A stretch of DNA of 59,473 bases from Porphyromonadaceae bacterium. GTDB lineage: Bacteria > Bacteroidota > Bacteroidia > Bacteroidales > Paludibacteraceae. Of this stretch, positions 44,340 to 48,020 are shown piece by piece. How positions within the stretch are numbered: position 1 is the first letter of the stretch; every line of letters begins with the position of its first letter. The notes beneath the pieces were generated by a model. That model was not told the DNA's origin. It saw nothing but the letters and a program-made list of their open reading frames with translations, and searched no databases. The position numbers and the translations under genes are program-made. The stretch covers positions 1-59,473 of the forward strand of contig CAJPNS010000001.1 of the NCBI GenBank assembly GCA_905372135.1. The letters are read 5' to 3'.

Positions 44340-46456
44340 TGTATATTAAGGAAATACAACTGAATAATTTCAGGATATACAAAGGATTAAACAAAATCTC
44401 TTTACTTCCTTCCGACAATAAAAATATTATCGTTGTTAGCGGGAAAAATGGATATGGAAAAACTACTTTTCTTATGTCATTGGTTTGGTGTTTATATGGC
44501 AAACAAATGGAGAAAGTAGATGAATTATATGAAAAAGAGATTCGAGATAAGGGAAATTATACCAAATATATTGCCAATAGTCTTAATCGGAAAGCATCTG
44601 AAGAGGGAGAAACCGAGTTTTCTGTTTCGATCACATTCTCAGGGGTGAGAATTCCCGATATTACATGTAATGAGGTTACTATAAAACGCTCTTATAATGT
44701 AATATCAAGTACCTCAGATAAAGTTGAGGTTTTAATAGATGGACACTCGAATGAACTAGTTGATGACCTGACAAGAGAAAACCAGAAAGGAGAAGAAATT
44801 TTTATCCGTGACTTTATTCTCCCCATAGAAATTGCCAAGTTTTTCTTTTTTGATGCCGAGAAAATTGTTTCTTTAGCTGAGGTTAATTCTAATAGTCAAC
44901 GGAGACAACTTAGTAAAGCCTATTCGGAAGTTCTTGGAATACAGAAATATGAAGACTTGAAGGCAATTCTCGAAGAAAAGCAAGATGAATATCGTCGTCG
45001 GTCAGCAAAACCGGAAGAGCAAGAGGAGTTGAACCAGCTCCATGCAGACATTGCCAATACAAATATTGAGATTGAGAGATACCAAGATCAGATTGATGAG
45101 CTTAAACATGAACGAAATCAAAAAGAAAAAGAGGCAGAAGATATTCAACGGAAGTTAATTCGTGAAGGAGATAAAATGACTTTGGAAGAATTAAATTCCT
45201 TGAAAGAAGAACAAGGAAAACTTGAACAACAAAAAAATGAAATTCAAGAAAAACTGAAAGATTTATTGGATATCATTCCCTTTGCTTTGGCTGGTGAAAC
45301 ATTAATCGGTATCTCTGAACAACTAGATAATGAACGAGATTTGTCTGAACAGAAATATCGTCAAGAAGATGTTAATGAAAAGATTGATCATATTCGACAA
45401 GATATCGAGACCGAACGTATTAAAACGCATTATGTAATAGATGTAAATATCAGGGATTTCTACGAAGCACAGATAAAGAAACTTGTGAAAAAGTATTTTT
45501 ACTCCGACTTGAAAGAAATCCCCGAAAATCTAAGAATTTTACATGATTTCTCAAATATTGAGACAAATGAATTCAACCAGTTGGTAAATACCGTTAAACA
45601 TAGTTTCAAAGATACTTTTTCACAAATGAATACAGAATATTCTTCTGTAAAAAACCAACTTGATTCCATTACGAGGAAAATTCGTGATGCGGAAAAAAGT
45701 GCAGAAGATGAATACATTGCAGTATTACGTGACACAAAGGAGCGGTTAGATAAACGTATTATATCTATTGAAAACGAAATCGAATCTATTGTTTTGAAAA
45801 TTGGGGGATTAGGAAATCAAAACAAAACATATAAACAGCGTCAAGAAATTCTCCGAAAAAAAATAGATGAGTCTAGTGTTTACTCCGAAAAAGAACAGAA
45901 AACAAAGCAACTGATTAATCGTTTGCAAAACTTTATTAATCTGTTTAAGGAAGAGAAGAAGAAGTCATTAGAAGAGAAAATGCTTGTCTCTCTTGATACT
46001 CTTCTGCATAAGAAAAACTTCATCAAAAAGGTAGATGTGGATATCAGTATGTCTGGAGATGATATTGATATTGTGCTTTATAATGGAAATGGTAGAATCA
46101 TAGATAAAAGTTCGTTGTCTATGGGAGAACGCCAAATGTACGCATCTGCTTTGTTAAGTTCCTTAGTGGATGAGTCAGAAATCGAATTTCCTGTTTTCAT
46201 CGACAGTCCAATGCAGAAGTTTGATGAGGAGCACGCTGAAAATATTATTCGGCATTTTTACCCGAATGTTTCCAAGCAGGTAGTTATTTTCCCTCTTATA
46301 AACAAGGAGCTTACCACAAAAGAGTATAGTATTCTTCAGCCTAAAGTATGCAAAGCATTTTTGATAAAGAACACATCTACTGAGAGTTCTGAGTTTCATG
46401 AAACTACACCTGAACACTTTATAACTACTTACAACGATTTATACAATGCAAATTAA
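44339..46456 (+). CDS. dndD: DNA sulfur modification SMC-like ATPase DndD
   Basis: Walker A GKNGYGKT, FFFFDAEKI, long coiled coil, LSMGERQ signature, VFIDSP Walker B; TAATG overlap with dndC. Confidence 0.93.
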   Translation: MYIKEIQLNNFRIYKGLNKISLLPSDNKNIIVVSGKNGYGKTTFLMSLVWCLYGKQMEKVDELYEKEIRDKGNYTKYIANSLNRKASEEGETEFSVSITFSGVRIPDITCNEVTIKRSYNVISSTSDKVEVLIDGHSNELVDDLTRENQKGEEIFIRDFILPIEIAKFFFFDAEKIVSLAEVNSNSQRRQLSKAYSEVLGIQKYEDLKAILEEKQDEYRRRSAKPEEQEELNQLHADIANTNIEIERYQDQIDELKHERNQKEKEAEDIQRKLIREGDKMTLEELNSLKEEQGKLEQQKNEIQEKLKDLLDIIPFALAGETLIGISEQLDNERDLSEQKYRQEDVNEKIDHIRQDIETERIKTHYVIDVNIRDFYEAQIKKLVKKYFYSDLKEIPENLRILHDFSNIETNEFNQLVNTVKHSFKDTFSQMNTEYSSVKNQLDSITRKIRDAEKSAEDEYIAVLRDTKERLDKRIISIENEIESIVLKIGGLGNQNKTYKQRQEILRKKIDESSVYSEKEQKTKQLINRLQNFINLFKEEKKKSLEEKMLVSLDTLLHKKNFIKKVDVDISMSGDDIDIVLYNGNGRIIDKSSLSMGERQMYASALLSSLVDESEIEFPVFIDSPMQKFDEEHAENIIRHFYPNVSKQVVIFPLINKELTTKEYSILQPKVCKAFLIKNTSTESSEFHETTPEHFITTYNDLYNAN

Positions 46457-48020
46457 TATAAGAACATCTGAAAAGAATCAGGACGTTGTACGGAGATTGA
46501 CAACTAAGTTGCCCTATGGTACAAAGGAAAACGTTATTGCCAGAATTGCATTGGGTTATTCGTTGCAAACAGGAAAGAAGTTTCAAACTGTTGATTTTAA
46601 TCTATATGATTCCAAAGGAAAAGAGTATAAGGATCATGTCTTATTTGATGCAAAATATCGAGACTTCTTTATCGCTTTGATTTGTCAGTATTACGGACTT
46701 TATAAGACAGACGATAATATACCTAAGTATATCAAACTTCATGTTGACCATGGTCTAGAGCTGATGGATACAATATTCCAAGATAATTATAATTATACGT
46801 TTTTTGATTTCTTGGTGGAGTATATCGAGAAAGGAACTTTAGCTTTAACGGATTTGAATGTTTCATTAGATGCTGTGCGAAATAACCAACAACATATAGA
46901 GAAGTCATTCTATGCTAATCCTATTAAAATTCAAGTCGGAAAGAGCTTGAATGATGATGAGCCATTATATCTAAATCTGAATGATACTAAACTATATAAT
47001 AATTGTCATATCGCAGTGGCCGGAAATTCAGGGACTGGAAAAACCCAGTTTGCCTTAGAATTTTTATCACAAATTTATGAACAGTCGAATGGTCATGTCA
47101 ATTTTATATACCTTGATTTTAAAGGGTTGAAATATGACGATGTAAAGCGAATGGAAAAGTTCTTTCAGGATACGAAAACGAAATTTGTCGATGTCCCACA
47201 AACTCCATTCCCCGTTAATCCATTAACTTTCATCGATAATATCAATGAGGTTAATAAAACGATGGGGATTGATAAATTCGTAGATATCGTTTGTAAATAT
47301 TCAAGTCTTGGTATCAAGCAAAAAGGGAAATTGCGGGAAGCGGCATACAATACATTTATTGAGCAAAGGGGAGGTCTATATCCTACTTTAGAACAAATAA
47401 ATGAACGCTTGCAAGATATTATTGGAGACAAGAAAGATACACTAACAGAGATAATGGATGAATTGAGCCGATATAAGATTTTTATTGACGATCCTAAGAA
47501 TGAATCTAACTTCTTCAACTCAAATTTATACTTGTCCCTTTCCGGTGATCTGTCTAAGTCTGTACGTTTTACCTCTTTATTCCTAATCATCAATTATCTA
47601 TATAATACATTTATGAATATGGATAATAGTCCTGTGGAAAATAATGTTAAAGCACTTCGATATGTGATTCTTATTGATGAAGCACATGTTCTCTTTAAGG
47701 AAAAGAAATATCAGGATATTCTGGAGAAATTGTTGAGAGAAATTCGTTCTAAAGGAGTTTCAGTTGTTCTGCTTTCGCAGGGTATTGATGAATACAATCA
47801 GCCCAATTTTGATTTTTCAAGTATGTGTGAAATTTCTTTCTTGCTTGACATCAAAGATAAAAACATAAAATCAATGGAAAAATTCCTTGGAATGTCTGGG
47901 GACGGAAGCAAGAAAATTGCTCGTAGTATGGAGAAAATTCAAACCGGACAAGTTATCAGTAATATTAAGGAATATGATAAAGGTGCTTTGTTTTGGATTA
48001 AACAATTTAAGGATAGATAA
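46446..48020 (+). CDS. dndE: DndE-like domain fused to a HerA/FtsK-superfamily (DptH-like) P-loop ATPase
   Basis: First ~125 aa: IRTS..., NVIARIALGYSL, GKEY, HVDHGL (DndE pattern). C-terminal part: HIAVAGNSGTGKT, YLDFKG, ILIDEAH, REIRSKGVSVVLLSQ. Confidence 0.8.
   Translation: MQINIRTSEKNQDVVRRLTTKLPYGTKENVIARIALGYSLQTGKKFQTVDFNLYDSKGKEYKDHVLFDAKYRDFFIALICQYYGLYKTDDNIPKYIKLHVDHGLELMDTIFQDNYNYTFFDFLVEYIEKGTLALTDLNVSLDAVRNNQQHIEKSFYANPIKIQVGKSLNDDEPLYLNLNDTKLYNNCHIAVAGNSGTGKTQFALEFLSQIYEQSNGHVNFIYLDFKGLKYDDVKRMEKFFQDTKTKFVDVPQTPFPVNPLTFIDNINEVNKTMGIDKFVDIVCKYSSLGIKQKGKLREAAYNTFIEQRGGLYPTLEQINERLQDIIGDKKDTLTEIMDELSRYKIFIDDPKNESNFFNSNLYLSLSGDLSKSVRFTSLFLIINYLYNTFMNMDNSPVENNVKALRYVILIDEAHVLFKEKKYQDILEKLLREIRSKGVSVVLLSQGIDEYNQPNFDFSSMCEISFLLDIKDKNIKSMEKFLGMSGDGSKKIARSMEKIQTGQVISNIKEYDKGALFWIKQFKDR

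Follow-up and report, generated by a model that had tools for sequence, protein, structure and literature searches.

A DndE–HerA/FtsK ATPase fusion, probably DndEi, in the phosphorothioate modification operon of a Bacteroidales genome

Introduction

Extended DndE proteins, named DndEi, are described from Riemerella anatipestifer, Flavobacterium indicum and Kordia algicida in the review PMC6435447, which cites Barbier et al. 2013 and Zheng et al. 2016, and dndEi genes are also reported from Prevotella and Bacteroides in PMC7464106. Section 6 of the review, which summarises Zheng et al. 2016, attributes both helicase and ATPase activity to the extra domain of the R. anatipestifer protein; according to the same source, inactivation of the helicase abolishes phosphorothioation in R. 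anatipestifer, and the DndEi ATPase is strongly stimulated by DNA with the GAAC/GTTC modification motif. Within the section of Rakesh et al. 2024 that treats these proteins (PMC10853773 section 22), the HerA/FtsK domains fused to DndE group with some DndH domains in 'clade-3', and they adjoin a DndD-related ABC ATPase. The accessible parts of PMC8569181, PMC12707154, PMC5608340 and PMC12914056 do not mention a DndE–ATPase fusion.

DndEi can be compared with three other kinds of protein. Canonical DndE (about 110–135 aa; solved structure 7x4e) has no ATPase. DndH/DptH, a restriction protein that works together with DndF and DndG, is about 1700 aa long and combines its ATPase with a helicase remnant and with target-recognition, inactive-methylase and nuclease domains. 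Among the ring ATPases, HerA carries an N-terminal barrel, the HAS domain, and FtsK has alpha and gamma domains. Here we describe a gene in a 59,473-nt stretch of a Porphyromonadaceae draft genome (contig CAJPNS010000001.1; the window) and conclude that very probably it is dndEi, the third gene of a dndC-dndD-dndEi operon for phosphorothioate (PT) modification, and its product, an extended DndE subunit, serves as a motor in the writer complex.

Results

The dndEi product joins a diverged DndE domain to a HerA/FtsK-clade ATPase

The gene is a single uninterrupted frame, and its domains, motifs and neighbours are listed in Table 1. The first-pass annotation had proposed a DndE-like N terminus, to be given up if neither profile nor structure agreed, and the profiles do agree: the Pfam DndE family PF08870 matches residues 5–109 (E 2.9e-17; 63.4 bits, cut-off 25), and a profile built from 24 N-terminal domains matches the solved DndE 7x4e with an E value of 3.9e-8. 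The NCBIfam DndE equivalog TIGR03184 scores 35.8 bits, below its cut-off of 71.85, which marks this DndE domain as belonging to a diverged subfamily. An AlphaFold2 model from the single sequence was unusable (pLDDT 38.4), and a model with the family alignment as input was used instead (pLDDT 91.9); in it the DndE domain consists of two strand-helix-helix units followed by a C-terminal helix, and a disordered linker separates the two domains. From these matches, the N-terminal 136 residues are a predicted DndE DNA-binding module, tied by the linker to a P-loop ATPase of the HerA/FtsK clade in which all catalytic motifs are intact.

Table 1. Features of the dndEi locus, in window coordinates; conservation refers to the family alignment described in the text
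Feature	Coordinates	Strand	Basis
dndC, 444 aa, PAPS-reductase-type sulfurtransferase	43005..44339	+	TIGR03183, PADLOC, Pfam
dndD, 705 aa, ABC/SMC-like ATPase	44339..46456	+	TIGR03185, PADLOC
dndEi, 524 aa, DndE domain and HerA/FtsK-clade ATPase	46446..48020	+	Domain searches, alignment, model
DndE domain, residues 1–136	46446..46853	+	PF08870, 7x4e profile match, model secondary structure
Flexible linker, residues 138–148	46857..46889	+	Sole model segment with pLDDT below 50
P-loop ATPase domain, HerA/FtsK clade, residues ~150–524	46893..48017	+	7es4, VirB4 and HerA matches
Walker A GNSGTGKT, residues 193–200	47022..47045	+	G193, G198, K199 at least 90% conserved
Walker B ILIDEAH, residues 408–414	47667..47687	+	D411, E412, A413 at least 90% conserved
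Arginine-finger region REIRSKG, residues 431–437	47736..47756	+	R431, R434, S435, G437 at least 90% conserved
Sensor-1 LLSQ, Q445 ending strand 438–444	47769..47780	+	Q445 at least 90% conserved; model strand
Small protein, 169 aa, four hydrophobic segments	48026..48535	+	Kyte-Doolittle
DGQHR-domain protein (DndB/DpdB-like, ParB superfamily), 441 aa	48513..49838	+	TIGR03187, Pfam DndB
Mrr-type restriction endonuclease, 273 aa	49835..50656	+	PF04471, PADLOC PDC-S02
tRNA-Asp(GTC), adjoining the right edge of the low-GC island	51251..51325	-	ARAGORN

Pfam gives weak matches of HerA_C, FtsK_SpoIIIE, AAA_10 and DUF87 to residues ~158–502. The resemblance to the ATPase end of DndH/DptH, which had also been proposed from the sequence, is borne out by sequence and by fold: positions 1296–1633 of the 1678 positions in the PADLOC DndH model PDLC02685 align to residues 149–476 (E 1.1e-27), and the closest solved structure to the ATPase half is 7es4, the DptH/DndH C-domain (sequence E 1.1e-12; Foldseek E 2.2e-19, TM 0.83 on the target). 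The next fold matches are VirB4 (4ag5, E 3.2e-10) and HerA (4d2i, E 2.5e-9). All four motifs of the claimed complete P-loop ATPase lie where they had been placed, as checked by translating their coordinates, and residue conservation was scored in a 59-sequence family alignment with identities down to ~20%. The clade is recognised, in the relevant section of Rakesh et al. 2024 (PMC10853773 section 21), by Walker A and B motifs, an arginine finger placed just ahead of core strand 4, and a sensor-1 glutamine that ends this strand. The dndEi product has every one of these, with REIRSKG immediately preceding model strand 438–444, as well as fold similarity to solved members.

DndEi shares with HerA, VirB4 and FtsK the fold and motif set by which it is recognised here, but lacks both the HAS barrel and the FtsK alpha and gamma domains. 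Residues ~159–475 match DndH/DptH best, in sequence as in fold, and the two proteins have in common the arginine finger and the post-strand-4 glutamine sensor-1. The similarity is confined to the DndH ATPase, however; the 524-aa protein has none of the other DndH domains, and no nuclease or inactive methylase lies ahead of its ATPase. Neither is DndF plus DndG co-encoding seen: TIGR03237 and TIGR03238 found no match in the 95.4%-complete genome, a result in which the control queries matched nothing either, so that absence is unproven.

The features that define DndEi are all present, namely an N-terminal DndE domain, an ATPase/helicase domain C-terminal to it in one polypeptide, the dndE position after dndC and dndD, and orthology to the R. 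anatipestifer protein. Identity to the homolog of R. anatipestifer RCAD1090 is 70% over the full length (365 of 523 columns); the published DndEi work, according to PMC6435447, used strain ATCC 11845. The R. anatipestifer protein has the same two-domain architecture, is 526 aa long and is likewise encoded behind dndC and dndD, whose products are 442 and 705 aa long, compared with 444 and 705 aa here. The two loci differ in host and in what follows the trio, since the cassette of small membrane protein, DGQHR protein and Mrr-type nuclease found here is absent from the Riemerella locus.

The operon lies on a low-GC island

The dndC product scores 434.6 bits with TIGR03183 DndC (cut-off 290.4) and matches PADLOC DndC (E 1.3e-145) and Pfam PAPS_reduct. 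The dndD product scores 283.9 bits with TIGR03185 DndD (cut-off 245.85) and 1136.5 bits with PADLOC PDLC02742, labelled PbeC, and matches the PADLOC DndD models at E ~1e-92. dndD shares 1 nt with the end of dndC and 11 nt with the beginning of dndEi. The gene trio is translationally packed and conserved.

In the small protein encoded behind dndEi, four 19-residue windows have a Kyte-Doolittle mean of at least 1.6, and Pfam gave weak matches that were all below cut-off. The DGQHR protein scores 117.6 bits with TIGR03187 DGQHR (cut-off 58.85), matches Pfam DndB (E 7.9e-13), and scores 146.3 with TIGR04172, below the cut-off of 450. Residues 131–248 of the Mrr protein match PF04471 Mrr_cat (E 2.2e-26), and PADLOC PDC-S02 gives 3.5e-34. 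Its N-terminal ~100 residues have no Pfam match even when E values up to 10 are allowed; we would guess that they form a reader of the HARE-HTH type, an architecture that appears in section 17 of PMC10853773.

GC content is 0.30–0.34 over 43.5–50 kb and 0.42–0.50 in the flanks, placing the operon on a low-GC island of a small Bacteroidales-like genome. The segment between the Mrr gene and tRNA-Asp (50660–51140) has a GC content above that of the island and is single-copy in the genome, and its ORFs have no Pfam match. A scan for promoters and terminators gave about as many hits as shuffled sequence (36 versus 38.1 expected, and 4 versus 3.8). dndA is not among the genes of the operon, and a cysteine desulfurase is encoded elsewhere in the genome (contig C38; PF00266, 498.6 bits).

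The fusion is conserved as a single gene

A 9-sequence alignment was used as the query in a search for related loci, and 80 were collected from named genomes, complete chromosomes included; the nearest copies among them are in a Tannerellaceae MAG (96%) and Parabacteroides faecis (93%). The DndE–ATPase fusion is in one frame in all of them, and in 77 this frame spans residue 1 to residue 521 or beyond, the remaining three ending at contig edges. By tblastn, all 80 loci contain DndEi, 79 contain DndD and 70 contain DndC, and in each of the ten without DndC the contig extends less than 2 kb upstream of dndEi. Wherever the contig extends far enough, dndEi is immediately 3' of dndC-dndD. Among the matches listed, 119 of 120 close homologs have PF08870 and HerA/FtsK-type Pfam matches together.

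The genome is a 145-contig draft, and the fusion might in principle be an artefact of assembly or gene calling that merged two adjacent genes, the outcome that the first-pass annotation had allowed for should homologs always prove to be two separate genes. The homologs are single genes. Short homologs do occur, but these are mostly fragments from contigs of a few kb, and where a long contig carries both fragments the break is within the ATPase and not at the domain boundary. The uninterrupted frame here, the single frames in the related loci and these break positions refute the artefact, to which we assign practically no probability.

The same loci differ in what follows dndEi. The DGQHR gene is present in 9 of the 80, the Mrr gene in 5 and the small-protein gene in 2; the three are combined in none, and at least four other types of cassette are found in this position. 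In R. anatipestifer the dndC-dndD-dndEi locus has no same-strand accessory genes behind dndEi. Behind one unfused DndE relative lie genes for a PLD-nuclease/SF2-helicase and for an SMC_N-type ATPase, a neighbourhood resembling the Pbe/CxC arrangement as described in PMC10853773 section 16.

Discussion

The DndE–ATPase fusion is already known: it has been named, tested biochemically according to the review, and placed evolutionarily in 2024. The observation of a fusion was thus correct but ordinary, and the novelty that the first-pass annotation implied does not hold, because the protein is already published as DndEi.

How the parts work together can be proposed from the domain assignments. The DndE module, together with the ABC ATPase DndD, would locate and hold the target site, and the tethered motor would open the duplex locally or translocate it, which would let DndC place sulfur in the backbone. 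DndC would be charged by a cysteine desulfurase whose gene lies outside the operon, elsewhere in the genome. The small membrane protein, the DGQHR protein and the Mrr-type nuclease would form a swappable accessory cassette outside the function of DndEi, probably with a role in regulation or restriction.

A different account would put the motor on the restriction side, with DndEi coupling PT writing to sensing and cleavage by the DGQHR and Mrr proteins and so replacing DndFGH. The nearest solved structure is indeed the DndH C-domain, the genome has no DndH match besides dndEi itself, genes for the Mrr-type nuclease and the DGQHR protein follow within this tightly packed operon, and dnd_assoc_2 and dnd_assoc_3 gave no match, in searches whose controls also matched nothing. 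Against this, the genes downstream of dndEi vary from locus to locus, and R. anatipestifer has no same-strand gene behind dndEi, yet its modification needs the helicase activity, according to PMC6435447. In that source PT formation requires the extra domain, which the modification motif stimulates, and DndEi is therefore better understood as a writer-side motor than as a merger with restriction. The suggestion that modification and restriction machinery are merged here accordingly loses its footing, with the DndH nuclease, methylase and target-recognition domains missing as well, and we regard the restriction-side account as improbable. Somewhat less so, though still doubtful, is that the dndC-dndD-dndEi core is a platform for interchangeable cassettes which here carries a PT-linked restriction or abortive module in place of DndFGH, with the DndEi motor as the coupling point; such a module could be undescribed.

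It is also conceivable that the ATPase half is degenerate, or purely a regulatory nucleotide sensor, with the DndE half alone carrying out the protein's function. Within the same taxonomic order, dndC-dndD-dndE clusters exist in which DndE has 131–135 aa and is 41–48% identical to the N-terminal domain, and these classical clusters have no detectable HerA-like gene nearby, from which it follows that PT writing in general needs no such motor. However, conservation in the 59-sequence alignment is at least 90% at the Walker A lysine, the Walker B DE, the two arginines and the sensor glutamine, and the review (PMC6435447) reports measurable ATPase and helicase activity, making a degenerate or sensor-only ATPase very unlikely.

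As a discovery the fusion matters little, and the gain is a correct annotation for a gut-type Bacteroidales PT island. The domain published as a 'helicase' has the fold of a HerA/FtsK ring translocase, and it may act in PT writing by unwinding or by translocation. Closely similar dndCDEi cores bear differing downstream cassettes.

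Domain organization and genomic setting of dndEi

The dndEi gene is an uninterrupted frame of 524 codons, the product of which matches the DndE family (PF08870) at residues 5–109 (E = 2.9e-17; 63.4 bits, cut-off 25) and, more weakly, the HerA_C, FtsK_SpoIIIE, AAA_10 and DUF87 families of Pfam at residues ~158–502. Residues 149–476 align to positions 1296–1633 of the 1678 in the PADLOC model of the restriction subunit DndH (PDLC02685, E = 1.1e-27), and the DptH structure 7es4 is matched by sequence at residues 159–475 (E = 1.1e-12). A profile of 24 N-terminal-domain sequences matches the solved DndE 7x4e (E = 3.9e-8). 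A first-pass annotation had described a DndE-like N-terminus joined to a complete P-loop ATPase resembling the ATPase end of DndH/DptH, and its four ATPase motifs are all present where it placed them; across 59 aligned members of the family, with identities down to ~20%, conservation is at least 90% for each of the Walker A residues G193, G198 and K199, the Walker B residues D411 and E412, and R431, R434, S435, G437 and Q445. The fusion of DndE to an ATPase is thus confirmed, and lies well outside chance. The PADLOC mad8 model (PDLC04140) also matches residues 174–450 (E = 2.7e-20), showing that a related HerA/FtsK-type ATPase is part of another catalogued defence system.

Coordinates of dndEi, its motifs and neighboring features
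Feature	Position	Strand	Remarks
EptA-type phosphoethanolamine-lipid A transferase	36510–38093		NF007160, 653.8 bits (cut-off 561)
Low-GC island	42500–50700
dndC	43005–44339	+	TIGR03183, 434.6 bits
dndD	44339–46456	+	TIGR03185, 283.9 bits
dndEi	46446–48020	+	Third gene of block
Walker A, GNSGTGKT	47022–47045	+	Confirmed
Walker B, ILIDEAH	47667–47687	+	Confirmed
Arginine-finger region, REIRSKG	47736–47756	+	Confirmed
Sensor, LLSQ	47769–47780	+	Confirmed
169-aa protein, four hydrophobic segments	48026–48535	+	Fourth gene
DGQHR-domain (DndB/DpdB-like) protein	48513–49838	+	Fifth gene
Mrr_cat nuclease	49835–50656	+	Sixth gene
GC-richer segment, ~480 bp	50660–51140		Single copy in genome
tRNA-Asp	51251–51325

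AlphaFold2 gave a model with a pLDDT of 91.9 and a pTM of 0.78 when supplied with the 59-sequence alignment, and we used this in place of the single-sequence prediction (pLDDT 38.4). In the model, residues 1–136 consist of two strand-helix-helix units and then a long helix, in keeping with the two ribbon-helix-helix units in the description of DndE in PMC10853773. The sole disordered stretch (residues 138–148) is followed by an alpha/beta P-loop domain (residues ~150–524). The top Foldseek match in the PDB is the DndH C-domain 7es4 (E = 2.2e-19, TM 0.83 on the target), a domain assigned to the HerA/FtsK clade in PMC10853773; next come VirB4 (4ag5/4ag6, 3.2e-10) and then many HerA entries (from 2.5e-9).

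Six close-set genes share one strand, with junctions that either overlap or leave 5 nt; dndEi comes third among them and is encoded together with DndC and DndD. The GC content of the block is 0.30–0.34 versus 0.42–0.50 in the flanks, and the low-GC island sits between a Xaa-Pro peptidase gene and the tRNA-Asp gene, with no integrase seen at either the island or the tRNA. Between the Mrr gene and the tRNA is a GC-richer segment, the minus strand of which has short ORFs of 95 and 134 aa, neither with a Pfam match; the segment may be a gene remnant. The EptA-type gene is upstream of the island at a distance of ~5 kb, and nothing ties the two together. The host genome, a draft of 1.79 Mb in 145 contigs (95.4% complete), gives no DndH match besides dndEi itself, and none to the dnd_assoc_2 and dnd_assoc_3 models, both of these searches being without a positive control. 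With 1136.5 bits, the window DndD scores far higher on PDLC02742, which PADLOC names PbeC, than on the PADLOC DndD models (~300 bits), and it also clears the NCBIfam DndD equivalog cut-off; judging from these scores, PDLC02742 would seem to stand for the DndD of dndEi-type operons and not for the CxC/Pbe ATPase.

Conservation of the fusion

Among 7999 candidates scored, 969 proteins match at E ≤0.001, and 119 of the 120 homologs listed have both PF08870 and HerA/FtsK-type Pfam matches; the remaining one is a 419-aa entry truncated at its N-terminus. Homologs listed under the name 'DndE family protein' come from Bacteroides, Parabacteroides, Butyricimonas, Prevotellaceae, Ignavibacteria, Melioribacteraceae and Acidaminococcaceae. 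At the level of 50%-identity representatives there are 736 matches at E ≤0.001 (65 at ≤1e-30), and among the best 150 of these, 62 are alignable over both domains (460–548 aa), 20 match this length but align in the ATPase part only (5 of the 20 match Pfam DndE at E ≤0.001), three are of DndH length (1722–1776 aa) and matched at their C-termini, and 65 are shorter, comprising 27 N-terminal, 23 C-terminal and 15 internal pieces.

A search for shorter proteins gave 408 matches, the majority of those listed being on contigs of a few kb, and none of the 120 listed is split at the DndE/ATPase boundary. Where two pieces do share one long contig, the N-terminal piece already includes the start of the FtsK-type domain, placing the break inside the ATPase. 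A relative is encoded in 282 of 328 pattern matches in named species genomes. Of the 80 loci that we kept from these, 77 have a single frame running from residue 1 to residue 521 or beyond, and in the other three the frame ends at a contig edge; dndEi is thus one gene, as first annotated. Using the window proteins in tblastn searches, DndD is found upstream of dndEi in 79 of the 80 loci and DndC in 70; in all ten loci lacking DndC, the contig extends for under 2 kb ahead of dndEi, and L065, a tiny contig, carries only a DndD fragment in reversed orientation.

Within the host order, dndEi is distributed patchily. Among 200 other genomes sampled from this order, a full-length fused match is present in five, and in two more the match ends at a contig edge; neither of the two same-family genomes has a match. 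Four genomes encode only a short classical DndE (135–164-aa frames, 42–50% identical to the N-terminal domain), and at three such loci (L089, L090 and L092) tblastn matches to DndC and DndD adjoin DndE. At L089 a 131-aa DndE ORF completes a dndC-dndD-dndE row, after which come genes for a PLD-nuclease/SF2-helicase and for an SMC_N-type ATPase. One further genome has a 532-aa frame alike in the ATPase only. At this locus (L093; genome G073, contig C264, 2871–6470) a gene for a 666-aa DndD-like ABC ATPase precedes that for a 531-aa HerA-type protein, the C-terminal HerA/FtsK ATPase of which is 24–25% identical to DndEi and the N-terminal ~160 residues of which have no Pfam match; tblastn finds no DndC there, and the pair is flanked by Abi_2 and ResIII genes.

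Relationship to published DndEi

The novelty implied by the first-pass annotation does not hold, as the fusion is published under the name DndEi. Citing Barbier et al. 2013 and Zheng et al. 2016, the review PMC6435447 uses this name for an extended form of DndE that occurs in Riemerella anatipestifer ATCC 11845, Flavobacterium indicum and Kordia algicida, and ascribes DNA helicase and ATPase activity to the extra domain; PMC7464106 mentions 'a rare dndEi' for Prevotella and Bacteroides. Alignment of the window protein with that of R. anatipestifer RCAD1090, which sits behind dndC (442 aa) and dndD (705 aa), gives 70% identity (365/523), and we therefore regard the window protein as an ortholog of one that has already been described and tested. 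Its family is known and characterised by experiment, and it is an ordinary member.

Variability of downstream genes

The proposal that dndEi merges modification and restriction machinery is at best weakly supported; the analysis supports the anatomical interpretation but not the functional speculation. The window's downstream genes are not conserved alongside dndEi (DGQHR protein in 9, Mrr in 5 and the small protein in 2 of the 80 loci), and the R. anatipestifer locus has no same-strand cassette downstream. The host genome, a draft of 1.79 Mb in 145 contigs (95.4% complete), gives no DndH match besides dndEi itself, and none to the dnd_assoc_2 and dnd_assoc_3 models, both of these searches being without a positive control.

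Clustering of downstream ORFs gave several cassette types: a ~365-aa protein with a weak GmrSD_N match (23 loci) and one of ~330 aa (20 loci); a small, soluble protein with one of the DndB family (12 loci); a small membrane protein with a DGQHR protein, frequently joined by DUF2130 (9 loci); and a HATPase_c_3 with a Methyltransf_35 protein (4 loci). Near-alike dndCDEi cores bear differing cassettes, and the two loci with dndEi 96% and 93% identical to that of the window (L009 and L011) have a cassette unlike the window's, consisting of a soluble 173-aa protein and a DndB-family protein (PF14072, E = 1.4e-34). In eight of the nine loci where a DGQHR protein of the window's cluster is close downstream, a small protein with 3–4 hydrophobic segments is directly 3' of dndEi, and none of the nine has the Mrr gene as well. 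In the five loci that do have it, the Mrr-type gene (cluster c6) lies behind four differing cassette types.

A model for DndEi action

In DndEi a flexible linker tethers the DndE DNA-binding module to an ATPase of the HerA/FtsK clade, the catalytic residues of which are intact. According to the review PMC6435447, this motor is active and required for phosphorothioate (PT) writing: its ATPase is strongly stimulated by DNA bearing GAAC/GTTC, the target motif, and inactivation of the helicase in R. anatipestifer abolishes PT modification. DndD and the DndE module would find and hold the target site, and the tethered motor would open or move the duplex, giving DndC access for sulfur insertion; the sulfur would be supplied to DndC by a desulfurase encoded elsewhere, and the host genome has a cysteine desulfurase gene outside the operon. 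The motor may act as a ring translocase, to which its predicted fold points, or as a classical helicase, in line with the name it was given.
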